Notes: a model not told the origin generated them from the sequence alone. DNA of 48,102 nt from an uncultured archaeon (GCA_964610875.1 CAZSWP010000003.1:1-48102); one strand, 5' to 3'; positions 108 to 18,173 are shown, counted from the first letter of the stretch. Numbers and translations are program-made.

Positions 108-731
108 TTGGAGATGAAGATTCTATACCTGTGTGAGATGGTCCCAGAAGATGGCTGTTTTTCAAGCGGGAAGTTTTCAATAACACGTAATGTTACTGTA
201 TACATAGGTCATGGAAACGAATCTTACAGAGAGAGAGGATTTCAAAGCATACTGACATACGAGGAAGTATGCTACATTGAGGAAACAGGAGAATCAATGG
301 CTGAGAGTCAGTCCTTGGGATATGAAGAAGGGGAGAGAATACGAATTGCATTCACTGAATTAGAGAGAAGAGCAGACAAGGGAGATAAAATAGCTGAAAT
401 GATAGCAACTAAAATAGACAATACTCCTAGTAGATTATTGAGAAATGAGGTGTTTTCCATACTAAAACCTTTAGGAATAGAGTGTTCTTTTGACCCTACA
501 GAGATTACACTATCGAGAAAAACAGGAAGTGTATCTGTCAAATGGGCTAGCTCTACTTCTACCAAAGAAGACGCAATTAGGTGGGCATTGCTTGCTCCAC
601 CAAATCATCATAGGAAATTTTCGAAGGTTTACGAGTTCATTATAAAAAACAAAGATTTCGCATTAGAAATTGCAAATGAGCTGGAGTCTGAGGGGCTTCA
701 GGTGTCGGATAGGTGGAGGGATTTGCTATAA
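108..731 (+). CDS. hypothetical protein
   Basis: 207-aa ORF, AT-rich, no motif recognised; stop abuts the next ATG at 733. Confidence 0.65.
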   Translation: MEMKILYLCEMVPEDGCFSSGKFSITRNVTVYIGHGNESYRERGFQSILTYEEVCYIEETGESMAESQSLGYEEGERIRIAFTELERRADKGDKIAEMIATKIDNTPSRLLRNEVFSILKPLGIECSFDPTEITLSRKTGSVSVKWASSTSTKEDAIRWALLAPPNHHRKFSKVYEFIIKNKDFALEIANELESEGLQVSDRWRDLL

Positions 732-732
732 T

Positions 733-1512
733 ATGACATCTGAAAGAATATTGAAAATAATTGGTAAGAAACTGAAATCGGAAATAGACCAAAAAATACC
801 CCTGAAAGTATTGAAACAGGTCATCTCTGATGAGTTTGAAGGTAAAGATATTGATGAAATAATTGATGAGGGGCTGATTGCATTTCAGTTCAATCTTGTC
901 TTCGATTATCCTCATGATAGATGGAATATGCCGAAATACACTCCTATCTGGCATCTGAAATTATTCTCACCGGAAGAGGAACAACAACTTCGTAATCTTA
1001 GTTCTGTTGATTTATCAATAATCAGGATCATACAAATGAAGCGAAGTGATGAGATGTTGGGTATGATGAAAGTTACAGAAGTTATTACTGAACTGGCAAA
1101 AATGGGATATAATACAGAGGACAAAGTTAGGATAAGTGTCCCCAACTTCATTAAGAAACACTATGAATACAATGGTGATGAACTAACCAAGTGGTGTTAC
1201 TTGATTCCTGAGTATGAGAAGACCGAAGAATACAAGCGAGCAGAAGAGGAGATGAATCGGGAGGCGGATGAGAGAGCTGCAAGAAAAGCATTCTACGCAG
1301 ATGCTTTTGACTTGGCAGATGCTATTTGTGGAATTCTACAGGAACACAAAGACGGTTTCTCAAAAGAGGAGATCAGCAAGAGACTCTCGTGGTACTATCC
1401 CAAGGCTCTCGAAAGGGCTTTTGCCATCAACTTGGAGGATGGGAACATCGAACTGGTGAAACTACCTAATGGCACCGAGGTCTATCGTATCGTGGCGAGT
1501 GAACTAGATTGA
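733..1512 (+). CDS. hypothetical protein, possibly with winged-helix-like segments
   Basis: ORF 670-1512, probable ATG at 733 (MTSERILK); its KWCYLIPEYEKTEEY segment is repeated in a fragment at 1811-1969. Confidence 0.7.
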   Translation: MTSERILKIIGKKLKSEIDQKIPLKVLKQVISDEFEGKDIDEIIDEGLIAFQFNLVFDYPHDRWNMPKYTPIWHLKLFSPEEEQQLRNLSSVDLSIIRIIQMKRSDEMLGMMKVTEVITELAKMGYNTEDKVRISVPNFIKKHYEYNGDELTKWCYLIPEYEKTEEYKRAEEEMNREADERAARKAFYADAFDLADAICGILQEHKDGFSKEEISKRLSWYYPKALERAFAINLEDGNIELVKLPNGTEVYRIVASELD

Positions 1513-1560
1513 TTGGGCTTTATTTTTGATTAAAAGCGTTATGCGTACTCAAAATTAGAA

Positions 1561-1705
1561 TGGTAGCGGGTAAAGGATTCGAACCTTTGATCTCGGGGTT
1601 TCCCGAAGCGAAGCCCGTAGGCGGAACCGCCATATGAGCCCCGCGGGATAGATTGCCATTTAGTCAAGCAATATTTTAACTAAATCCTGGCTTCCCCAAC
1701 CCGCT
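1561..1705 (-). tRNA. initiator tRNA-Met(CAT) with two introns (D-loop 1653-1685; 37/38 1600-1632), CCA encoded
   Basis: Acceptor AGCGGGT/ACCCGCT (A1-U72), D stem GGGA/TCCC, anticodon stem CGGGG/CCCCG around CT-CAT-AA, T arm AAAGG-TTCGAAT-CCTTT, ACCA end. Confidence 0.93.
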
Positions 1706-1810
1706 ATTTGAACAAACAGCTGCTTGAATAAGTCACCAAGTTCCTGTTGTGATTCAAAGACTCGCCCTCCAAGTTTTAAAGTTATTCATAAAGCTAACAG
1801 AATCAACCTG

Positions 1811-1969
1811 TCAATCCTGATCATGGGGTCGACAGATGTCTTCCAGCATCAAAGCCCCTCGTGTTTCACGTTCCGCATGGGCATCAGCTTGTGCTTTTCT
1901 GTACTCCTCTATCTTCTCATACTCGGGGATTATCCGACACCATTTCACATCAGTGGCACCATGTGACAT
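1811..1969 (-). pseudogene. 52-codon fragment paralogous to the 733-1512 protein
   Basis: Translates MSHGATDVKWCRIIPEYEKIEEYRKAQ..., matching TKWCYLIPEYEKTEEYKRAE. Confidence 0.7.
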
Positions 1970-2025
1970 AATCTATAATATATGCATTTGAGGTAAAAGA
2001 GCTATTGATTCAAGCGAGTGATAGA

Positions 2026-2538
2026 TTATACAGGTACTTCTCTAGGAGTGACTATCTGTTCTTCGTCCACCAGTTTGAACCAATCAAATGCAGAGGGATA
2101 ATCGAAATCAGTATGTCCACGATATTTGCCAATCCATCTCCAGCAGGGCACACCATCCAAAATCTCCAGTTTGTAGAGATTTGCACGCATGAAATTAAAA
2201 CGGACCTCAAGAAGAGCCCCTGGATCAAGTTGTGCTGCCAATTCATCTATTTCAGCAACAACAAGAGGTTCTCTACCATCAGAGTCAAGCGATCCACCTT
2301 GTGAGATGTATTTCCTTGATTTCTCCCCTGTGCGAGTGTCTTGGATGATGATGGCAACATATGGTCTTGTAATCGGGTCATAGTATCTAGGGATGGAAGG
2401 ATGTCGAATCAATATGTAATCGCTGATTAGCTCCATATTCGAAACTAATTCCTGTCGCAAGGCCGTTCTCTCCACCATAGAACTAGTAAAAACACCATAT
2501 AAGAGAGCGTTAGACATGTATGTGTAGCCATATTGCAC
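2026..2538 (-). CDS. hypothetical protein (start probably downstream of 2538)
   Basis: 170-aa ORF with protein-like composition, no family recognised. Confidence 0.55.
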   Translation of the reverse strand: MQYGYTYMSNALLYGVFTSSMVERTALRQELVSNMELISDYILIRHPSIPRYYDPITRPYVAIIIQDTRTGEKSRKYISQGGSLDSDGREPLVVAEIDELAAQLDPGALLEVRFNFMRANLYKLEILDGVPCWRWIGKYRGHTDFDYPSAFDWFKLVDEEQIVTPREVPV

Positions 2539-2692
2539 TCTGCCGGCGTTTTATTGAGGAAACTGGCAATCCTATTTCTCCTTTCATAGAATGGAGTATT
2601 ATGACGGATAAACAACGATTTTGTGCTTCTTTATGGCTTAACAAATGGTCATACTGGATTTGGATGTCGTATCAGCAATAATTTGAGTGAAG

Positions 2693-3004
2693 TTATTCTG
2701 CTATCTCTTCAGCAATGCCAACTATGAGTTTGCGACCTTCAAATAATGCACGCGCCATTTTAGACCTAGCACTGGATAGTAAACGCCAGATAGTTCCTCT
2801 GGATACACCCATCCTACTACCTGCTTCCTCTTGGTATAATCCCTCAATGTCAACAAGTCGTAGAACTTCAGCTTCAGCAAGATCGAGGTATATCGGTGGT
2901 TGTTTTTCGGAAGGATTTGGAATCAAACTCTCAGCTTTTGGTTTCGTATCTATATTTGGTTGAATTGGAAATCTTCCTCGACCGCCTCTTCTTCGTCTGT
3001 GCAA
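2693..3004 (-). CDS. DUF134 family predicted DNA-binding protein
   Basis: EVLRLVDIEGLYQEEAGSRMGVSRGTIWRLLSSARSKMARALFEG HTH signature. Confidence 0.9.
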   Translation of the reverse strand: MHRRRRGGRGRFPIQPNIDTKPKAESLIPNPSEKQPPIYLDLAEAEVLRLVDIEGLYQEEAGSRMGVSRGTIWRLLSSARSKMARALFEGRKLIVGIAEEIAE

Positions 3005-3179
3005 TATATATCACCATCCAGTACGTTACAAACTGAAACTATCGGTATTATCTCTTCCGTATGAAATAATAAACTTGTTTCGTAACTTTTGGTTTTGTTT
3101 TTACGTATTTCGCCAATAGGAGTGAACACTTATCTCTGAGATAATTCTATTCTTGTATTACATGTAGAGGTCGATATTG

Positions 3180-4397
3180 ATGGGGTTCAGTATTGGTATT
3201 ATCGGAAAACCTTCTTGTGGCAAGACTTCTTTCACTAATGCTGCATGCATGACCAAGTTCAAGGAGGGTAGCTATCCATTTACAACAATTGAGGCAAATG
3301 TGGGAGTGACCCATGTAAGAACTCAGTGTGCTTGTAATGATTTTGATGTAGAAGACAATCCAAAGAACTCCATCTGCATTGATGGGGTCAGACTTGTTCC
3401 AGTGAAGCTTATTGATGTTGCAGGGCTTGTACCAGGAGCACATGAGGGAAGAGGAATGGGAAACCAGTTTCTTGACGATTTGAGTCAGGCGGATGTTCTC
3501 ATTCATATTGTTGATGCCAGTGGGTCTCTTGATGCGGAAGGTCAGGAGATTGACACTGGAAGTTATGATCCAATTGACGATGTCAGATTTCTTGAAGAAG
3601 AGCTGACTGAATGGATGTTTAATATTGTGACGAAAGAGTGGCGACGAATTTCTTCACGTGTCCGTGCAGAAGGAGCAAAATTGGATGAACTTCTGCTAGC
3701 AAAGCTCTCTGGACTTCAAATCACACGTTCACACATTCTTAGAGCAATAAGAACCTCAGGTCTTACGGCTCAAGCAGCAGACAAGTGGACAGATGATGAG
3801 ATTCGAAATTTTGTATCAATCTTGCGACATGTTTCGAAACCAATCATCATTGCCGCCAACAAGATTGACCGGGCCAAGGCAGAAGACAATTACTTACGAT
3901 TACAAAAAACATTCCCCGATTATTTGGTCATCCCAGTCAGTGCATTAGCGGAAAAAGTGTTGAAAGACCTAGAGCAAAAGAAGATTATCAAATATATTCC
4001 AGGTGACGATAATTTTGAGATTCTTCAACCAGATAAGTTGAGCGAGAGCGAAATTGCGCAACTGGAAAAAATCAAGACCGATATATTGAAGAAATACAAT
4101 GGCTCCGGAGTACAGAACATTCTAAATCAAGCAGTCTTCGAGTTTCTGCATATGATTACAGTGTATCCAGTTCATGATGCAAATACATTGACTGATAGTG
4201 ATGGAAATGTCCTTCCTGATGTATTTCTTGTACCAGAAGGCACTACAGCAAAGGAGTTTGCAGGAGTGATTCATACTGATCTTATGGATTCCTTTATCCA
4301 TGCTATTGATGCCAGAACGAAGATGAAAGTATCAGAAAAGCATGAATTAAAGGACAGAGATGTCATCAAGATTGTTTCAGCAAAGGGCACCAAATAG
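3180..4397 (+). CDS. ychF: YchF/Obg-family ATPase with TGS domain
   Basis: GKPSCGKT P-loop, YPFTTI, DVAGLV, NKID, C-terminal TGS (IHTDL). Confidence 0.93.
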
Positions 4398-9850: not shown

Positions 9851-10645
9851 CTACAAGATTCTAAGCGTTTCTCCAATTATTGACTCTTCTCTATCACCCA
9901 TGATAGCAACCAGTTCTATGTGGTCTACTAGCTGTGGTGCACTTCGAATCTTTTCTTCCAGTAATTCTTGGATTTGAAATATTCCAGATGCATTATTCAT
10001 CGTGACTTCAATTCGGACTTCCCTTTCCTCGCCTTTCTTGATTTTAACACGATCAATTGACATAGCAGATGCAGAATGAATATTCACCCTACCTGCTTCA
10101 AAGGGTATTCGTGCTCGTCCTTTTGTCATGTCTAGCGCATCAGCAATACCAACGATTCCTGCCTCTATAGTCTGCGGAGTAATCATTTTGTCATGACTGT
10201 ATATTGCATGTAGTATGTGTCCTCGAACATGAACCTGTTTGTGAAAATCTTTTGGATACACCTTAGTGAGAATTCTATCTACAATTGGTGCTGCCAGAGT
10301 GACCGAGAAAATATGATGGCCCTCACGACTGACTGTCATGCCGATGTCATGCAGATAGCATGCCATTAGAATGATTAGCTGTGCATCCTCCAATGTACCA
10401 GTTTCTTCTTGTACGATTGATGGGTGAATACTATCCTTTACTGCATTAAACAACTGGATACCACTTTTAGTTACAATCAGTGAGTGAGTGTGGCCATGAT
10501 CCGAGTATCCCATCCTGTCAATAGCCATACGATTTGTATCTTCAAGTATAGTCTGTACTTCAACATCTCTCTCAAGGGCGTCAAATGCAATCGTACAGAG
10601 TTTATTGCCCTTGAACATTCTTCTTACTCTATCTTTCAATGTCAT
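9851..10645 (-). CDS. HD-domain phosphohydrolase
   Basis: GYSDHGHTH, YLHDIG, HAIYSHD, ADALDM.KGRARIP. Confidence 0.9.
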   Translation of the reverse strand: MTLKDRVRRMFKGNKLCTIAFDALERDVEVQTILEDTNRMAIDRMGYSDHGHTHSLIVTKSGIQLFNAVKDSIHPSIVQEETGTLEDAQLIILMACYLHDIGMTVSREGHHIFSVTLAAPIVDRILTKVYPKDFHKQVHVRGHILHAIYSHDKMITPQTIEAGIVGIADALDMTKGRARIPFEAGRVNIHSASAMSIDRVKIKKGEEREVRIEVTMNNASGIFQIQELLEEKIRSAPQLVDHIELVAIMGDREESIIGETLRIL

Positions 10646-10887
10646 TCTTGCTTTGTGGCCTTTATACAATGAACTAGGCCCCCTTTTCTTTTTCTTTTCT
10701 TTCTACTCTTATTATCAAGATTGGATTGTCCAGTTAAGGTAGTTTCTATATGTCGTTTTCATTTCAAATGCTTATCAGAAGATTCTATTCCATTAGTGAC
10801 TATGAAACTACAAATTCAAAACAAATGATACTTTTTGGTTGTGTTTCAGTAACTTCCTTATTTTGTAGGGTTCAACGCGTTTTTAGT

Positions 10888-11769
10888 CTAGGACCTAGCT
10901 GATGAAACAAGTTGTTCTTCTGGACTAGACTTTTCTTTTTCCATACCTTTCTTTATTCTCAAATATATAATAGATACAACCACTAGATAACCTACATATC
11001 CAGCCACTTCAAGTGCCGAGGGATTTCCATTATAACCAAATAGACTCTTTGCAAGACTTCCAATCAGTCCATTCTCATGAAGCAGAGGATAAGACCCATC
11101 AGGGAGTAATGGAGGATTAATATTCCAAATCTCCACCGGACCAATCAGGAGTAGTCCTGCTTCTTGGAGTTCATGAATACCATAGGCAATCATTCCTGCT
11201 GCAAATAATACCAAGAGAATGGAGGTCCATTTGAATACAGTGCCAAGACTAAGTCGCATGGAACCGGTATAAAATCCAACTCCAAGGACAATGGCAATTC
11301 CGAAACCCAGTGCGATTCCAAGATATGTGATGACACCATCTTGTATCACAAGGGCTATCGTGAAAAGCACAATCTCTACACCCTCTCGTAAAATGAGGGC
11401 AAAGGTCAGCATGAGTAGTCCTATTCCCTGTTTCACTCCAACCTCTCGTTCCACGGACTCCTCAATCTCAGTTGCTATTCTTGAACCAGTCTTCCACATC
11501 CACAGAATCATGGTAGTTAGAAGAAAAGCAGCTACGAGAACTACAGTCCCTTCAAATATTGCTACAGCTGGCCCTTCAAGAATTCCCCAGACCAGGTACA
11601 TTACAAATCCAATTCCAAGACTTGTCAGTATAGCAAATATGACTCCAAATAGAACGTATCTCTTCAACTCCATCCGTGATGTCTGACGGAGATAAGTCAG
11701 GATTATTGCCAGAATAAGGGCAATCTCTATCCCTTCTCGTAATGAAACAAGTATTGGAGTGATTATCAT
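10888..11769 (-). CDS. FTR1/EfeU-type iron permease
   Basis: Two REGxE motifs (REGIE, REGVE) and multiple TM segments. Confidence 0.93.
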   Translation of the reverse strand: MIITPILVSLREGIEIALILAIILTYLRQTSRMELKRYVLFGVIFAILTSLGIGFVMYLVWGILEGPAVAIFEGTVVLVAAFLLTTMILWMWKTGSRIATEIEESVEREVGVKQGIGLLMLTFALILREGVEIVLFTIALVIQDGVITYLGIALGFGIAIVLGVGFYTGSMRLSLGTVFKWTSILLVLFAAGMIAYGIHELQEAGLLLIGPVEIWNINPPLLPDGSYPLLHENGLIGSLAKSLFGYNGNPSALEVAGYVGYLVVVSIIYLRIKKGMEKEKSSPEEQLVSSARS

Positions 11770-11883
11770 ATCTAAAAAATTAGTAAACTATAGTTAATAA
11801 TCTTTGGATATGTCCTGCTTTTAGTATACGGAGATGGTTCGGACAGATAAAATTCTGAGATTGTGTACATCATTTGTCCTTCT

Positions 11884-12318
11884 CTACCACTTCAATATCT
11901 TGTACTGATGTTTCTCAAAGCAATCTGAACATACTCGGAACCATAGATCACTCTCTTTATTCTCTATCTTCTTGGCAATAATTTCTCCGTTCTTTATTGG
12001 AAGGTTATTCCCACAGAGATTGCATCTATAGACAGCCTCAACACGAAACTGAATCACTCTTGAGGGGCACGTGTAAATTCGTTCATTGCGTTTGGAACTA
12101 CCCAACTCTCGCATGTCGCCAAGTACTCGTAGAGATTGCAAAAGTGGATACATGCCTACAAAACTCTCCCCACATAATCCTTCAGGTGTGTGCCAGTCAA
12201 ATGTGAAGACTTTGCCTTTCTTATGATCAGCTCTGCAGTTGCCATCCTTGATGACTTCTACCTTGAAACTGACAGGTTCATGCCATGACTCAAGAAGATG
12301 AAGGACTTCATTATTCAT
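11884..12318 (-). CDS. TIGR04076 family protein with C-terminal CxxC...CxxC extension
   Basis: GNCRADHKKG, TPEGLC, YTCP; CNLC and CSDC. Confidence 0.75.
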   Translation of the reverse strand: MNNEVLHLLESWHEPVSFKVEVIKDGNCRADHKKGKVFTFDWHTPEGLCGESFVGMYPLLQSLRVLGDMRELGSSKRNERIYTCPSRVIQFRVEAVYRCNLCGNNLPIKNGEIIAKKIENKESDLWFRVCSDCFEKHQYKILKW

Positions 12319-12418
12319 TTGTTCAGGGCACCCATATTCAATACAACAGGTTCGCTATTTACTTTACTCATGGTATCGAGTGTATAGAAACCCCGTTCTT
12401 GCACTGTTTGTAGGCACA

Positions 12419-12454
12419 TCACAATCGAATCGGATTCGTTCCAATCCTCTTGAT
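12419..12454 (-). repeat. displaced copy of the mvhD 3' end
   Basis: Reads ATC AAG AGG ATT GGA ACG AAT CCG ATT CGA TTG TGA = IKRIGTNPIRL*. Confidence 0.8.
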
Positions 12455-12533
12455 ATTGTTCACTAAATAATTGCTCTACTGCAGTCTAATGTCTTCTATG
12501 AGTAGGATTGTTGTGCGCATACAATATTGGAGT

Positions 12534-13055
12534 CTATATGTTATCACTAATACCTCTCGCTATTTTCAAGACTTGCCCGTATACCTTGGAGTCCAATCGA
12601 AATCCCAAATCAATCATTTGATCAAGAGTTGCAATGAAATCAGAAAAGTTCAGATTCGAATTTGATAAGGCTTGAAGTAGAACTCCTAAAGTACCCAGGC
12701 ATCGTACGCCTAGGATTTCTGCTGCACTCCGTCCCATTTTATCATCGATAAGAAGAAGGGCATTCTTCTCTTTTGCAAGAAGAATGGCTGTGGCTTCTCC
12801 AAAATCAATCCCAGAGCTCTTTGCAATGAGAGCTGCGTCTTTGTTTGTAATATCTATACTTTGAATCCATCCCTCTTTAACAGCTGAGGAAATAACAATT
12901 GCATCTGGTGAGTCCTGAAGCCCACAGGTCTCATTGAGGACTTCATGGGGTATCATTATCTCTTGGAACAGTTCCTTTAGAATGGAAATTCTCCCGACCT
13001 TTGCTAGATAGATTAGTGGACTTGCATTGCTGACCACTCTATTGCTCCCTGACAA
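12534..13055 (-). CDS. PIN-domain toxin, DUF3368 family
   Basis: VVSNASPLIYL, IDFGEATAI, LLIDDKMGR, GTLGVL; start approximate, overlaps the antitoxin. Confidence 0.9.
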   Translation of the reverse strand: MSGSNRVVSNASPLIYLAKVGRISILKELFQEIMIPHEVLNETCGLQDSPDAIVISSAVKEGWIQSIDITNKDAALIAKSSGIDFGEATAILLAKEKNALLLIDDKMGRSAAEILGVRCLGTLGVLLQALSNSNLNFSDFIATLDQMIDLGFRLDSKVYGQVLKIARGISDNI

Positions 13056-13344
13056 ATGCAAGATCACGCTCCAGGTCATCCACATCATACGCGATGGAAA
13101 TAGATGCTTTGTCAGCCTCCTTCATCATTACTCTTAGTGGTACACCTGCCATAGAGGCAGCCTTCCAGAGAGAAACTCGTTTCTCTCTATATGCCTTCAG
13201 TGCCCTCTCCAATAGGAATTGCTGTATTCCGATGGCCAGAGCTCTCCTGATCAACTCCGACCGATCAATATGTTCTTCTTTGGCAATGAGCTCCAGTTTC
13301 TTAATCATGTCTTCTGGTAGTCTTGCAGTTACAGTTTCCATCAT
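13039..13344 (-). CDS. UPF0175 / ribbon-helix-helix antitoxin
   Basis: TVTARLP...DRSELIRRAL (RHH) and VSLWKAASMAGV; directly upstream of the PIN gene. Confidence 0.88.
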   Translation of the reverse strand: MMETVTARLPEDMIKKLELIAKEEHIDRSELIRRALAIGIQQFLLERALKAYREKRVSLWKAASMAGVPLRVMMKEADKASISIAYDVDDLERDLAFVREQ

Positions 13345-13402
13345 ACGTCGTGTGCATTATATTATTTTGTACACATAAGCCTTTCCTTATTCCGCTCATA
13401 CT

Positions 13403-13438
13403 CTATAGTCGTATTGGAGTCTGGTCAATCTTCCCAAT
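13403..13438 (-). repeat. degenerate displaced copy of the mvhD 3' end
   Basis: Reads ATT GGG AAG ATT GAC CAG ACT CCA ATA CGA CTA TAG = IGKIDQTPIRL*. Confidence 0.65.
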
Positions 13439-13514
13439 CTACTATTTTGTTAGTCATGGCAAAAAGAATGTTCTTTGCCTGGAGAATAATCCAAATTTTC
13501 CTCGGCGTGATATT

Positions 13515-13544
13515 TTACAATCGAATCGGGTTCGGACCAATCTT
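13515..13544 (-). repeat. displaced copy of the mvhD 3' end
   Basis: AAG ATT GGT CCG AAC CCG ATT CGA TTG TAA = KIGPNPIRL*, four differences from 15331-15360, all synonymous. Confidence 0.9.
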
Positions 13545-13549
13545 TGTAT

Positions 13550-13960
13550 TTATGTCATATACAGGAGTTTGGAGATACTCTGTTTCTCAGCAATAGATAG
13601 CTGTTCAGGTAGATATCGTTCTTTTGGAATAAGTTTCAGCCGGATGGTATCAAGTTCATGGACGTTTGGATTCTGTATTCGAATGATAGCTGCATTGCTT
13701 TCGATAATTCTGTATTCAGATAATGTTTCTTGAACTCTATGAACCACATCCAGAACGCGCTCAACCGTCCGAGGGTTGAGATTGGTCCTCTTGAAAACCT
13801 CTAGGACTGAGAGTTCATCCTCAAGAATGAGAGCTTGGGTGACTTCTTCTCATAGACTCCTCAAGAGTTGTACGTCGTTTAGACTTCTCCGCAACATGAA
13901 GCAGCTCTCTGACCTGCATCCTCTACTGAAGTCCGCTTTCTCGGGGTCATGGTCTGTCAT
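13550..13960 (-). pseudogene. frameshifted paralog of the tandem-wHTH protein at 14017-14709
   Basis: KRRTTLEESMRR / VTQALILEDELSVLEVFKRTNLNPRTVERVLDVVHRVQE...ERYLPEQ aligns with RTSVEEVIER..LEIEDDLTVAELARRAGVNRKTVDRALD...KWYFPDE across a frame change. Confidence 0.75.
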
Positions 13961-14016
13961 TCCTTTATCGATTTGACATATACTAGTCTGGACTATCCAA
14001 AATAAACTCACAAAGA

Positions 14017-14709
14017 CTATGAAGTCAGTAAGAGGGCTTTCTCTTGTTCCTCTGGAAGCTCTTCTACTTCATCAGGAAAGTACCATTTCTTCAGCAGATA
14101 TTTGATTATTGTAGAGTCAAGGTCATATATCTCAGGACGCAGTCGCCAGATTATCATATCCTTCTTTGAGATGATGCCTTTAGCTATCTGCTCTTGGAAC
14201 TTAGTTATGATGTCCAGAGCTCTATCAACCGTCTTCCTGTTCACACCAGCACGTCGAGCCAGTTCTGCCACTGTGAGATCATCTTCAATCTCTAATACGA
14301 TAAACAAGCGTTCTATCACTTCTTCCACTGAGGTTCGAGATGCTGACTCAAACCTGGCGCTTATCTGTTCAGCACTCATGTCTGGTTCTTTTTTCTTGAA
14401 GAACCGTTTCTTGATGTACCACTCACGTATTTCCTCAGGCAGTCTTATCTTATCCAGCCGGTCTCTCATCCAGACAATCTTACCCGCTTTACTCTTCATG
14501 ACTCTGATCTCATGTGCTGCAAATATCTCTTGCGTATTCATCAAGAAGTCAATCACACGTTCTACTGCACGCCAGTCCACATTTGTGCTATCTGCAATAG
14601 CCATGATGGTTATTGGTGACTCTACCACTACTGTATCTAGTATGGACTCAACAGCCTCTTCGAATGTCGTTCTCTTATCATCTGTCATATCCGTCACCAT
14701 GTCGTTCAT
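14017..14709 (-). CDS. tandem (internally duplicated) winged-helix DNA-binding protein
   Basis: Two homologous halves, RTTFEEAVE..ITIMAIADSTNVDWRAVERVID and RTSVEEVIE..LTVAELARRAGVNRKTVDRALD. Confidence 0.8.
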   Translation of the reverse strand: MNDMVTDMTDDKRTTFEEAVESILDTVVVESPITIMAIADSTNVDWRAVERVIDFLMNTQEIFAAHEIRVMKSKAGKIVWMRDRLDKIRLPEEIREWYIKKRFFKKKEPDMSAEQISARFESASRTSVEEVIERLFIVLEIEDDLTVAELARRAGVNRKTVDRALDIITKFQEQIAKGIISKKDMIIWRLRPEIYDLDSTIIKYLLKKWYFPDEVEELPEEQEKALLLTS

Positions 14710-14717
14710 TTCCTACT

Positions 14718-14958
14718 ATAACTGTGACACTCTCACTCACTGTCGTAACTGTTAGTCGGTTGACTCGATTTTGGACCACGTGTCTAGCCACATCATTTCT
14801 AGCGGAGTTGATTGTACTGACGTGTAGCAGTCTGTCGCGTTCTTATACTCGCTTTAACGTATATATATCTTATCACTACTAATTTTGTTTATATTTTCGC
14901 TTATTATATCATTATATTTCTTTATTACGGCAAATATATATAAGGATGTGACAGTTAT
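14718..14958. promoter_or_regulatory. divergent promoter with matched TGT(C/G)ACAGTTAT sites before both start codons
   Basis: ATAACTGTGACA at 14718-14729 and TGTGACAGTTAT at 14947-14958; AT-rich TATA-like core between them. Confidence 0.55.
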
Positions 14959-14965
14959 CATCTTT

Positions 14966-15277
14966 ATGCAACTATCTGAGATTGACCTCATCATCATGGC
15001 GTGCATGTACGATGAGGACCGGATAGGTGCACATCATGGCAATGTAGAGAACATCCTTAAATTCTGTACACCGAAAGAGTACCGTGACAGGTACAGAGTC
15101 AGTATACTCAAAAAACGTCTTAGAAGACTGGCACGTGCAGGGTATCTTCGTATGAAGAAGGGAAGATTCGAAGCGTATTCTCTGACACAACGGGGAGTCA
15201 ATATTGCAGAACGCTGGAAACAGGGCTGGACTGTTGATCAAATTAACGATGCCGAGAGGAAAGAGGGTTTTCTCTAG
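14966..15277 (+). CDS. small winged-helix protein
   Basis: ATG at 14966; LKKRLRRLARAGYL...YSLTQRG wHTH pattern. Confidence 0.78.
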   Translation: MQLSEIDLIIMACMYDEDRIGAHHGNVENILKFCTPKEYRDRYRVSILKKRLRRLARAGYLRMKKGRFEAYSLTQRGVNIAERWKQGWTVDQINDAERKEGFL

Positions 15278-15330
15278 AAATATGGATTTCTGTTTATTCT
15301 ATACCTGTACTGCATGTGCAATTTGGTCTT

Positions 15331-15741
15331 TTACAATCTTATCGGGTTTGGGCCAATCTTCCTGATTTCTTCCGCGAACTTGTTGACCTCAGCGGCAAAC
15401 TTGTCACCCTCAGCCGCACTCACGAAGACCATCTTCACCCTGTCCTTGTTCAGGCCCACCTGGCCAACTAACTCCCTCGCAAACCTCACCCTTCGCTCAG
15501 CCCCCAAATTTCCGGTCTTATATGCGCAGTCACCAGGATGGCAACCCACCACCAGCACTCCGTCGGCACCTTCCTGCAGCGCCTTCAAGATGAAGTTGAT
15601 GTCCAGCCTCGCGGTACACGGCATTCTGATTATCCGCGACGTGATGTCGTACTGTAACTTCATGGTCCCTGCAAGGTCGGATGCTGCGTACATGCATTGC
15701 ATGCACCCGAAAACTATGATGTTCATGTCTTTAGGAGGCAT
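15331..15741 (-). CDS. mvhD: hydrogenase/Hdr-associated 2Fe-2S subunit MvhD (FlpD), Cys form
   Basis: FGCMQCMYAASDLAG, RMPCTAR, GADGVLVVGCHPGDCAY, VSAAEG, IGPNP. Confidence 0.95.
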   Translation of the reverse strand: MPPKDMNIIVFGCMQCMYAASDLAGTMKLQYDITSRIIRMPCTARLDINFILKALQEGADGVLVVGCHPGDCAYKTGNLGAERRVRFARELVGQVGLNKDRVKMVFVSAAEGDKFAAEVNKFAEEIRKIGPNPIRL

Positions 15742-15804
15742 TTAGAGTTCCACCGCATTCTAGTTTTCGGAGAAGTAACGGCAATATATTCTTTGATGTA
15801 TGGA

Positions 15805-17721
15805 TAGGGTCGCTGGGAGATTGTACTCCCAGCGCATGCAGTGCCCGACCAGTTCAGGGATTGTGAGATGTTGAGTGAACCTCGCAATCTTTCTGCAACC
15901 TCTGCGTTCCACCAGACCCGTGACAGCCATCGCTGGACTCAGGACCATTCACACGTTCCTGATTGACACGAGCCTTGTCAGACTTCATTTGAACATGGTC
16001 CATCTGCCTGAACGTGGCTTCTTTCCTCTGCTCAAGTACATCGGACCCACCAGACCTTGGGCTGTCAAGGTGTCCGACGGCAGGAGGTGATTCCGCAGCA
16101 CTTTCCACGACTGGATCTTTATCACTCATTTTACCCTTGTCGCCAAGAATAAGAAGGTCTTGTTGGACATGGTGAACAGTCGCGGACTCCCCTTCAAGCA
16201 AGGCTGGTGACCTCTGAGGGAGTGAGGACTTCTGCTTAGAAACTTCGGCGGTTTTCCTTGCAGCTTTTGGACGTGGCTTCTGCTTAGAAGCATGTAACCA
16301 ACGCCCTAGTCCTTTGAGCTCATCCTGCAATGCAGGAGTAAGCTTTATTCTTCGTATTGCAATGTTAATGGCGCCATTTCGGTCAGCATTCGTTCGATAA
16401 CCACAGGTTGGACAGACAAAGAGGTCCTGTTTAGGTCGAGTTCCTCTTCGTCCACATTGACTACATGTAATGCTAGTCCTTCCTTCATACACCGCAAGAA
16501 AACGACTCTCGAATCTACCAACGCTCCATCCAAGTTGGGAGAAGTGGTGTTCGAGTTTCTGGATTACCCTGAAGAAAGCCCACCTATGTATCATCTTACG
16601 ATACTTACGACCACAGCTATACTGTTTGGATGCAATATTCCGAATTCCTTTGGGATTGCCAACAGCAACATAGAGATTGTACTTTTGACTGAGTTCTGTC
16701 ACATAATCGATAAGATTTGCAACTAGAACACGGTCCCACTCTTCGTTGATGTTAGCCTGTTTGTGTCGTAATATTCGGAGTTTCTTTGCAAGTTTGTCAT
16801 ATGGCAGTCTTTGCTCTCTACGGATTCGCATATCTCTCTGAAGTGAAGAGATACGCTGTTCACATCTCTTGAGATATTCTATCTTCTCTTTCTGATAGAA
16901 ATACCTGACATGCTGAACACGGTCTTTGGTGAGTGTCACAGCACATGCGGCTTTGCTGATTCCAAGATCAATGCCTACCACAGCTAAGGGTCTTTCCTTC
17001 TGGAAACTTTTCTTTGACTCGTTGATTCCTATTGAGAAGACGACCCACCAGCGACATTCATCATCCTTGACTATCTTACATGAATTCATAGTCCCTCTCT
17101 CTATCTGTGATAGATGGAAAGGAGAGACCTTGAGAGGAACGGTCAGCTTGTCATGAACTCTTCGACCCTGTCTGACAGAGTCAAGCGAGTCCCTGATTTC
17201 AAGCCAGTGTTTGATAGTCAAATCTGGACGATAAACAAGCTGGAACAGCTTTGGAAAGATGTTTCGAGGAATCTTCCGTTTTCGCTTTCCTTCCATATGC
17301 AGTGGCGGACTACCACCTTTTCGTAGATAGCTAGTCCACATATTGACTGCAACGTCTCGACATTCTTGTAGTTCATTCACAGAGATATTGGGAAACCTCG
17401 CTTTGAAATCATGCGGGACTTCAAGACGACGTCTCTTAGGGTCTTTGTGTCTTAGAGCTGTAAGAGTAAGTCTGTCAAGCTGTACAATATCGATTCGTTT
17501 CCACTTATCGCCTTTAACAAGTTGCTTTTGATGTCGTTCAATGACACCAAGATACGCTCTTATGACTCTGGTATCCCGACCTGTGATATGAGAGAGTCTG
17601 GTACGCTGTCGTTTTGTCATTCTTTCCCAGTTGATGGGAACCTTGACACTGACAATTGTACCCGAAGAGCGACGCATTCTAAATACACCGAATATAAATT
17701 TCCGACCTGTTGCAGGTTCGG
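15805..17721 (-). mobile_element. non-autonomous IS200/IS605/IS607-superfamily element (tnpB only); ends approximate
   Basis: tnpB flanked by hairpins CCGACCTG-TTG-CAGGTTCGG (17702-17721) and CGCTGGGAG-N6-CTCCCAGCG (15811-15834); no tnpA nearby. Confidence 0.6.
15854..17677 (-). CDS. tnpB: TnpB/Cas12f-like RNA-guided endonuclease with long C-terminal tail
   Basis: RuvC-I VVGIDLG (D237), zinc ribbon CSQC..CPTC, RuvC-III NADRNGAINI (D432). Confidence 0.92.
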   Translation of the reverse strand: MRRSSGTIVSVKVPINWERMTKRQRTRLSHITGRDTRVIRAYLGVIERHQKQLVKGDKWKRIDIVQLDRLTLTALRHKDPKRRRLEVPHDFKARFPNISVNELQECRDVAVNMWTSYLRKGGSPPLHMEGKRKRKIPRNIFPKLFQLVYRPDLTIKHWLEIRDSLDSVRQGRRVHDKLTVPLKVSPFHLSQIERGTMNSCKIVKDDECRWWVVFSIGINESKKSFQKERPLAVVGIDLGISKAACAVTLTKDRVQHVRYFYQKEKIEYLKRCEQRISSLQRDMRIRREQRLPYDKLAKKLRILRHKQANINEEWDRVLVANLIDYVTELSQKYNLYVAVGNPKGIRNIASKQYSCGRKYRKMIHRWAFFRVIQKLEHHFSQLGWSVGRFESRFLAVYEGRTSITCSQCGRRGTRPKQDLFVCPTCGYRTNADRNGAINIAIRRIKLTPALQDELKGLGRWLHASKQKPRPKAARKTAEVSKQKSSLPQRSPALLEGESATVHHVQQDLLILGDKGKMSDKDPVVESAAESPPAVGHLDSPRSGGSDVLEQRKEATFRQMDHVQMKSDKARVNQERVNGPESSDGCHGSGGTQRLQKDCEVHSTSHNP

Positions 17722-17864
17722 TTATAGAGATTCACTCGTTCTATTGTAATGTAGAACAAGTGAAATACTCCACACTATTCTTTCCTGACGGAAAGAATAT
17801 AAATTTATGACTAAGGGGAACATGGGTAAAGTAATGCGAGCCACTAAAGCTGCATCAGAACTGG

Positions 17865-18173
17865 TTGCGACCGCTCAAAGAGTCCCTACAAAGTTTCCTG
17901 ACAAATGAAGAGTTGGCGTACTTGAAGATTAATGAAGCGGATTTGATTCTTGTCGTTTTAGTAATCACTATATTTACTGTACAATTTGTCAATACAATTT
18001 ATCAAGTATCTCTTGCCTACTTTTTCTTTGCTCTACTATTCTACTCTGTTGGTATTGTGCTAATCATTATGAGTGCATTGAGTGAGGATGAAACAAGAAC
18101 AAGTTCTGACAATGAGAAATCAGAAATCTTTGAAGAGCCTGACGAACTTAAATCTAAGGAAGTAATAGTGTAG
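17865..18173 (+). CDS. small membrane protein (2 TM)
   Basis: Two hydrophobic stretches, acidic tail, adjacent to the next gene. Confidence 0.6.
   Translation: MRPLKESLQSFLTNEELAYLKINEADLILVVLVITIFTVQFVNTIYQVSLAYFFFALLFYSVGIVLIIMSALSEDETRTSSDNEKSEIFEEPDELKSKEVIV

Follow-up and report, generated by a model that had tools for sequence, protein, structure and literature searches.

Chromosomal superintegrons hold cassette arrays that are rich in toxin-antitoxin cassettes, and archaeal integrons were reportedly described in 2022. Element e14 and phage 21 integrate in icd and replace the part of the gene that they displace. For tandem tRNA/tmRNA islands, the work of Williams (2002), as far as it is cited in PMC8813620, likewise describes elements that enter a gene and replace the displaced part. 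In T-even phages, free-standing homing endonucleases (SegF and others) carry out intronless homing (PMC13565253, PMC2988022), in which polymorphisms of a conserved gene close by distinguish self from non-self (PMC13565253), and the homing nuclease SegB drives tandem amplification (PMC13096335). Nuclease-dead TldR repressors, in turn, derive from TnpB (10.1101/2023.11.30.569447). Here, we relate these systems to a locus built around mvhD in a stretch of 48,102 nt from an uncultured archaeon (GCA_964610875.1 CAZSWP010000003.1:1-48102; the window), which forms the first 48 kb of contig C3. The genome comprises 3.75 Mb in 124 contigs, and its source is taken by us to be a member of the Thorarchaeota (Asgard). 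We found that the 3.5 kb interval between mvhD and an FTR1 permease gene is very probably the decayed remnant of a cassette array that grew at one fixed point in mvhD, between nt 36 and 40 (codons 13/14).

The gene, the breakpoint region and the remnants on which this reading depends are the following, with positions counted from the first nucleotide of the window:

15331..15741, minus strand: intact mvhD (MvhD/FlpD, 136 aa), the target gene (PF02662, E = 7e-46; NF045873, VhuD-like).
15691..15714, minus strand: breakpoint region X, mvhD nt 28-51; the pattern TGCATGCANCCRA is found in the genome only here.
13515..13544, minus strand: c1, remnant of a displaced mvhD 3′ segment (KIGPNPIRL*); 27.3 bits, genome-wide E = 8e-6, rank 2.
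13404..13440, minus strand: c2, a more decayed remnant (IGKIDQTPIRL*); 8.7 bits, genome-wide E = 4.9, rank 12.
12420..12482, minus strand: c3, remnant of the copy after the PIN gene (nhmmer profile positions 346-410); 18.4 bits, E = 0.005, rank 3.

A 48-nt profile of the mvhD 3′ end, made from 94 copies from relatives with the window excluded, was scanned over the whole genome and returned mvhD itself at rank 1 (genome-wide E = 4e-11). Consistent with the preliminary description, which had read the interval as cargo blocks set between displaced copies of the mvhD end, the intact gene terminates in IRKIGPNPIRL*, and c1 differs from its last 30 nt at four positions, all four of them synonymous. 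Four displaced copies had been proposed: c1 and c3 stood up genome-wide, c2 did so within the array only, where its E value rescales to about 0.002 for 3.5 kb on the same strand, and c4 (11825..11848, minus strand) fell away, as the profile had no match there and its alignment to the remnants of G088 and G079 stayed at chance level. Decay did not rise strictly with distance from the gene, as had been thought, c3 being better preserved than c2. Across the 3.75 Mb genome, no other 30-mer lies within seven mismatches of the mvhD end, c1 or c3, and a degenerate pattern matches at these three places only, with 0 matches in 100 shuffles.

Longer versions of the remnants occur in relatives, for which we surveyed 86 family genomes and 67 metagenome loci; all genomes are metagenome assemblies, and many contigs end inside the mvhD locus, as expected for repeats and strain variation. 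Orthologues of mvhD are present in 68 of the 86 family genomes (amino acid identity 84-96%), and at least 14 of these 68, along with many metagenome contigs, carry one to four long partial copies on the same strand behind the intact gene. The long copies span nt 40 (codon 14, ATGCAR...) to the stop codon, 372 nt in all; their edges are sharp in three clades, and their flanks on both sides are unrelated to mvhD. The repeat unit is thus the codon 14-to-stop segment, with its junction near the 5′ end of the gene, rather than the last 36 nt with a junction at the 3′ end, as the window had first suggested. Shorter copies are internal or 5′ deletions of the 372-nt unit, that of G011 covering profile positions 38-103 and 319-408 and that of G079 positions 39-180 and 301-410. 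The short copies c1, c2 and c3 are likewise what internal deletion left of longer mvhD copies.

Partial copies and the intact mvhD of the same genome diverge by 11-24% at the DNA level, nearly all of it synonymous. The ratio of replacement to synonymous substitution rates (dN/dS) between partial and full copies is 0.005-0.1, with dS ranging from 0.45 to above 2 or saturation. Young copies have intact frames; distal copies carry more replacements (some radical), a frameshift and internal deletions. The low dN/dS and the intact young frames indicate that the copies were part of a working mvhD until they were displaced, which bears out the earlier view that they were once real mvhD sequence. Partial copies group with the mvhD of their own host lineage. 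One copy pair in G022 is mosaic, its members agreeing throughout the first 137 nt and diverging by about 20% beyond, and the pattern is reversed in G049. Such mosaic identity shows homologous recombination or gene conversion, by which the copies exchange blocks. A model in which a break is repaired from the next copy was rejected, since mismatches per quarter between mvhD and its first partial copy (88, 91, 102 and 102 over seven pairs) show no general bias to the breakpoint.

The cargo between the copies, and the gene that bounds the array, are in the window:

14885..15277, plus strand: winged helix-turn-helix (wHTH)-like small protein, cargo, divergent partner of the 230-aa gene; homologues stand at the same array position in G022, G001, G023, G098 and G049.
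14017..14709, minus strand: double winged-helix DNA-binding protein of 230 aa, cargo (HTH_11, DUF977 and others).
13577..13852, minus strand: degraded duplicate of the 230-aa wHTH gene (residues 132-223 align at 31% identity; one TGA).
13039..13344, minus strand: ribbon-helix-helix (RHH)/UPF0175 antitoxin, cargo (PF03683 and PF01402); copies 70-91% identical lie in the arrays of more than 10 relatives.
12534..13088, minus strand: PIN-DUF3368 toxin, cargo (PF11848 and PF20698); in relatives, an mvhD copy always lies directly downstream.
11884..12318, minus strand: TIGR04076 family gene, cargo or old resident (TIGR04076, 34 bits).
10888..11769, minus strand: FTR1 permease, conserved distal flank of the array (PF03239).

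Apart from the FTR1 gene, these are the bracketed genes of the preliminary description, the "pseudogene" named there being the decayed second copy of the 230-aa wHTH gene. The Pfam scan returned no match for the wHTH-like small protein encoded at 14885-15277. The 230-aa protein has 20 family homologues, about half of them inside mvhD arrays, and its Atlas matches are TrmB/MarR-like; the idea that it might be a hidden recombinase was rejected, as it resembles winged-helix regulators only. UPF0175/RHH and PIN-DUF3368 genes adjoin in the window in the manner of a type II toxin-antitoxin pair, and VapB-PIN and GNAT genes do likewise in relatives. The TIGR04076 gene also comes after the last copy in G079, G061, G088, L124 and L161, and in G088 and G079 a remnant is present behind it, at the place of c4.

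G079 matches the window in cassette order, and its copies are much longer (wHTH pair, copy, UPF0175-PIN, copy, copy, TIGR04076). Among relatives, the full copy from codon 14 to the stop begins 5-9 nt past the PIN stop codon, and the c3 junction is the same in G016, G001, G021, G022, G079 and G095. Because G079 combines the same cassette order with longer copies, and c3 sits where the full copy of relatives starts, the array in the window is an old, eroded version of theirs.

Insertion at mvhD is variable across the family. In genomes without cargo, the FTR1 gene and an HD gene (9851-10669 in the window) lie 100-300 nt behind mvhD, and such empty sites, with FTR1 or HD gene at this distance, were seen in at least eight genomes. 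In others, the gap behind mvhD measures 1.5-11.5 kb and differs in content, holding VapB-PIN, UPF0175-PIN, GNAT, AbiV-type HEPN, deaminase, methyltransferase, prenyltransferase-like and CHAT proteins and wHTH pairs. The cargo is mostly of toxin-antitoxin and defence type. The same cassette types and junction sequences recur at different positions and in different orders in different genera. As the preliminary description had anticipated, insertion at mvhD has therefore recurred within the archaeal family, with cargo that varies between relatives and breakpoints at the copies; the profile scan and the comparison of cargo, both proposed there as checks, gave neither an identical gene order nor profile matches elsewhere. 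Its picture of an integron-like, polarised array held in part. A cassette array is present, IntI and attC are not, and the polarity fits one comparison: relative to its congener G016, G001 has one extra cassette, which adjoins the intact mvhD, and the sequence behind the first partial copy of G001 equals that behind the intact mvhD of G016. This single pair agrees with the newest unit standing next to the gene; a deletion in G016 could also account for it.

Large blocks in some loci (L155 2935-8322, L161 1975-4332, L151 1322-2680) contain repeated prenyltransferase-like (alpha-alpha toroid) proteins beside a CHAT-like protease, and may represent an undescribed defence-type module.

The fixed point can be placed narrowly. 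The left edge of the partial copies of relatives, nt 40, corresponds to window position 15702 and falls on an 8-nt perfect palindrome, TGCATGCA (mvhD nt 37-44), and on a 13-nt palindrome, CATGCA-R-TGCATG (mvhD nt 39-51). The displaced 5′ fragment of G022 runs to nt 36 and includes the upstream region; that of G069 stops at nt 33 and adjoins a scaffold gap. Together, the copy edge and the fragment ends put the breakpoint at nt 33-40, on both palindromes. On the cargo side, the half-junction shows no conservation from one cassette type to another. A AAAGATTATAT-like box of the archaeal TATA/B recognition element type is conserved in most genomes about 54-64 nt before the mvhD start, and such a box accompanies the displaced 5′ fragment in G022.

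Upstream of mvhD lies a gene whose product may bear on this breakpoint, together with two elements at its 3′ end:

15854..17677, minus strand: TnpB-like protein, 607 aa, directly upstream of mvhD (PF07282, PF01385; PDB matches to TnpB/Cas12f, E = 5e-9).
15847..16000, minus strand: predicted omega-RNA-like conserved structured element, ending GGTC, which overlaps the tnpB-like 3′ end.
15826..15846, minus strand: guide-like flank, here a diverged version of a 17-nt antisense copy of mvhD nt 28-44.

The protein has the TnpB domain set (WED, RuvC and TNB zinc ribbon) and scores 84 bits with NF040570, below the cut-off of 100; it also bears a 150-aa low-complexity C-terminal tail. Homologues occupy this position in at least 20 loci from many genera with a protein identity of 42-62%, and the DNA over the tnpB-like 3′ ends is conserved far above the protein level. 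A consensus fold of the omega-RNA-like element from 10 loci has 30 pairs, 16 of them with compensatory changes; the Rfam scan of 11500-18000 matched no family. The eight TnpB-like paralogues in the genome share a common scaffold up to GGTC, after which the sequence is variable. Neither a TnpA partner nor ends defined by a target-adjacent motif (TAM) were found, and PF01797 (Y1/TnpA transposase) has no match in the genome.

In mvhD-linked tnpB-like genes, the variable part has a definite character. After GGTC follow GG and then TGCATGCA-K-CC-R-AA-R-AC, the antisense sequence to mvhD nt 44-28, which runs across the breakpoint; the 13-nt core of this flank occurs once in the genome, at the mvhD site. 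In the 43 distinct loci compared, changes in the flank are confined to mvhD wobble positions, and the flank equals the resident mvhD in 0 of 43, with at least two mismatches in 17 nt. Own pairs have 4.21 mismatches on average as against 3.68 for non-self pairs, a value reached in 0 of 10000 permutations among genomes that are related, and at one flank position 6 of 43 own pairs agree, as against about 17 expected from the state counts. We regard this self-avoidance as suggestive only. A target in a neighbouring conserved gene, combined with a resident allele that differs, is the arrangement of free-standing homing nucleases. Partial copies were counted by hand from the per-genome table in 20 of 29 loci with the upstream motif and in 8 of 27 without it. 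A TldR-like repressor of mvhD was considered and is unlikely, as the flank never equals the resident allele (at least 2 of 17 positions mismatch). In the window, flank and copies are both diverged, which suggests that the proposed RNA-guided system is probably inactive in this genome.

Two TnpB-like paralogues (C3:148725-148795, L179, outside the window; C37:32941) have flanks at the guide position that match tRNA genes elsewhere. One flank is identical at 17 of 18 positions to a tRNA on C47 (23255-23361, L177; Rfam 49.8 bits), and the other at 16 of 18 to the antisense of a tRNA on C24 (1-71, L178; 42.3 bits); in the C3 paralogue, scaffold end and tRNA-like flank together occur twice in tandem. 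From these matches, the TnpB-like clade may be aimed at conserved genes in general.

Several arrangements near these genes were also observed. Upstream of mvhD, L022 (G018), L051 (G002), L066 (G098) and L088 (G056) show a tandem duplication, spaced by 55-70 nt, of the last ~22 nt of the scaffold along with the mvhD-like flank. In G016, G014 and G011 (L039 15719-16024, with equivalents in L053 and L056), an HTH-like open reading frame (ORF) of about 100-150 aa lies between the TnpB flank and the mvhD promoter, that of G011 carrying stop codons; the stretch from flank to promoter is thus also variable. In G023:C123 (L075), 195-3187, a wHTH130/wHTH230 pair immediately follows another TnpB-like paralogue, without an intervening mvhD, and more distant wHTH pairs occupy unrelated chromosomal places (L061-L065).

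Taken together, each unit of the array consists of cargo plus the mvhD segment from codon 14 to stop. The promoter-proximal mvhD stays whole, and older 372-nt segments lie downstream on the same strand and later lose their interior, down to the 30-65 nt ends of the window. To account for this, we propose that units leave or enter by recombination through the 372-nt homology, which would make an element-borne integrase unnecessary. The fixed breakpoint would stem from a double-strand break by the neighbouring TnpB-like RNA-guided nuclease: mvhD alleles that match the guide would be cut, and the resident allele would escape by its wobble mismatches. Repair from incoming or sister DNA would then copy the resistant allele along with the linked cargo, sometimes leaving the cut resident segment behind, a form of RNA-guided "intronless homing". 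We consider this whole account, from array through homologous movement to TnpB-made breaks, to be evenly poised between right and wrong. Its TnpB part, taken separately, is plausible but unproven, and our judgement leans somewhat against it. More tentative still is the general proposition that, in Asgard archaea, a locus-bound or domesticated TnpB-like nuclease has taken on the part of a free-standing homing nuclease, with guides against foreign mvhD alleles, or against tRNA genes in paralogues, and with repair that would spread the nuclease gene and the cassettes in the population and stack the displaced segments into an array free of integrase.

A number of observations weigh against the involvement of the TnpB-like protein. 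The canonical RuvC-II Glu is absent clade-wide, its position reading G-N/R/K. The Asp of GIDLG and that of NADxNGAxNI in RuvC are invariant, as is another Glu (PESWTS, before the WTS motif) in 14 sequences, so that the clade may have a rearranged active site. No common TAM is visible across the three target kinds (mvhD and the two tRNAs). Known TnpB cuts 15-21 nt from the TAM (ISDra2), and ISDra2-like cutting would fall at about nt 24-30 of mvhD, not 36-40. By independent contrasts, with three well-supported pairs, self-avoidance of the flank was not significant. The mosaic conversion tracts, for their part, are no proof of a nuclease. In eight genomes, partial copies occur where the upstream motif is undetectable, and in nine the motif is present and copies are absent, exceptions on which a strict association of motif and array was rejected. 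As to movement, neither a free circular unit nor an excision junction was seen in the metagenome assemblies, and the uniform edge at nt 40 could also have come from a single founding duplication that homologous recombination then spread.

A recombinase could take the place of a nuclease, and the search for one extended the initial report of no integrase in the window: the Pfam scan, which took in about 40 cargo ORFs of more than a dozen arrays, found no recombinase and no PF00589, and no integrase turned up in any of more than 20 arrays. The PHROGs scan found nothing phage-like, and the IMG/VR scan no viral contig with mvhD. There is no IntI beside the array and no attC, the boundaries being mvhD nt 40 to stop or remnants thereof. 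Direct repeats of the target segment flank each unit and mvhD is intact, as in integrative elements that restore their target gene, and an element-encoded integrase was absent from the ~40 ORFs. The genome as a whole does encode one PF00589 protein (XerA-like, C52) and two small serine recombinases (PF00239, C18), and any of these could act in trans on the palindrome TGCATGCA, the TnpB flank then resembling the site as an insertion sequence landed in the same hotspot. The nt-40 edge lies at most 1 nt from the centre of the 8-nt perfect palindrome, as would a crossover dinucleotide, and is identical in three clades. Yet the lack of conservation on the cargo side of the junction leaves no second half-site to be seen, the ends of the displaced 5′ fragments (nt 33 and 36) miss the palindrome centre, and no recombinase lies in or adjoining any array. 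Variation at wobble positions only, and the self-mismatch of the flank, would also stay unexplained. We therefore consider action of a recombinase in trans unlikely, if still a serious contender.

Another possibility dispenses with dedicated machinery: one ancient partial duplication of mvhD, propagated by homologous recombination, unequal crossing-over and lateral transfer beside an unrelated TnpB-like neighbour. It would accommodate the mosaic identity blocks in both directions, the grouping of copies with the mvhD of their host lineage and the arrays of the eight genomes in which the upstream motif was not detected, and a circle with one 372-nt segment would remake the same edges at each integration. 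It accounts poorly for independent displaced 5′ fragments that break within 4-7 nt of the same point, and for a 17-nt TnpB flank that spans this very breakpoint, for which we estimate a chance of ~5e-6 from the 13-nt core only. Moreover, copies within an array are 11-24% divergent in DNA, a poor substrate for frequent homologous recombination. On balance, this explanation is about as unlikely as a recombinase in trans, and the two are the main rivals of our account.

A role for the long partial copies as functional short paralogues of mvhD, starting at Met14 and kept by selection, appears very unlikely. Most of them do have intact frames and very low dN/dS, and codon 14 is ATG or GTG in several, but others have ATA, CTG, ATC or TCG there. 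The copies lack the conserved Cys13 and abut the PIN stop codon with no conserved upstream signal, distal copies carry frameshifts, radical changes and internal deletions, and the window keeps 30-65 nt only. Finally, the view of the short repeats in the window as chance matches, or as a regulatory or terminator motif unrelated to mvhD, can draw on c2 and c4, each weak alone, but is refuted for c1 and c3, which rank right after mvhD genome-wide with a window-free profile and lie on the same strand at the positions of the longer copies of relatives, and it can practically be dismissed.

No description of an mvhD cassette array was found in the papers searched. Compared with integrons, the array has a similar fixed insertion point set by a conserved platform, units of one to three genes between repeated boundary elements, the same cassettes in different orders across genomes and abundant toxin-antitoxin cargo. 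Unlike integrons, it has no IntI or attC, its boundary is a 372-nt piece of a protein gene, the cargo lies on both strands with its own promoters, and insertion takes place inside a coding sequence that is restored each time. Gene-restoring integrative elements share with it the intact target, the distal old segment, the tandem arrays and the mostly synonymous differences. They bring their own integrase and replace a short 3′ end, whereas here 90% of the gene is replaced, the junction lies at codon 13/14, the units measure 0.7-4 kb and no integrase is present. The locus would thus be a cassette-accumulating platform with neither an integron nor an element-borne integrase, in the closest prokaryotic relatives of eukaryotes, and its boundary element would be most of a conserved metabolic gene. 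The repeated mvhD segments also explain why assemblies break so frequently at this locus.

The gene next to mvhD resembles the TnpB/omega-RNA systems of IS200/IS605 and IS607 in its protein domains, in the structured RNA over the gene 3′ end and in a flank in the position of a guide, and differs from them in lacking a TnpA partner and in being syntenic over many genera instead of mobile. Its fixed position and the match to a host gene close by recall TldR; unlike TldR, the match is antisense, 100-700 nt downstream and within coding sequence, and it mismatches the resident allele, which speaks against a repressor of that allele. In any case, the locus offers a defined guide-target pair from an unstudied TnpB clade. 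With intronless homing, finally, the mvhD locus has in common a nuclease gene between conserved genes, a presumed target in the neighbour and a resident allele that is silently different, while linked genes that hitch-hike and tandem repeats that can arise at the cut are further likenesses. It departs from phage homing in its cellular (Asgard) genome and in the presumed RNA guidance of the TnpB-like nuclease, whose cleavage is putative. If the TnpB link is true, a natural RNA-guided nuclease would be behaving like the free-standing homing endonucleases, which amounts to gene drive in the chromosome of a cell, and would provide a route for toxin-antitoxin and defence genes between Asgard lineages.

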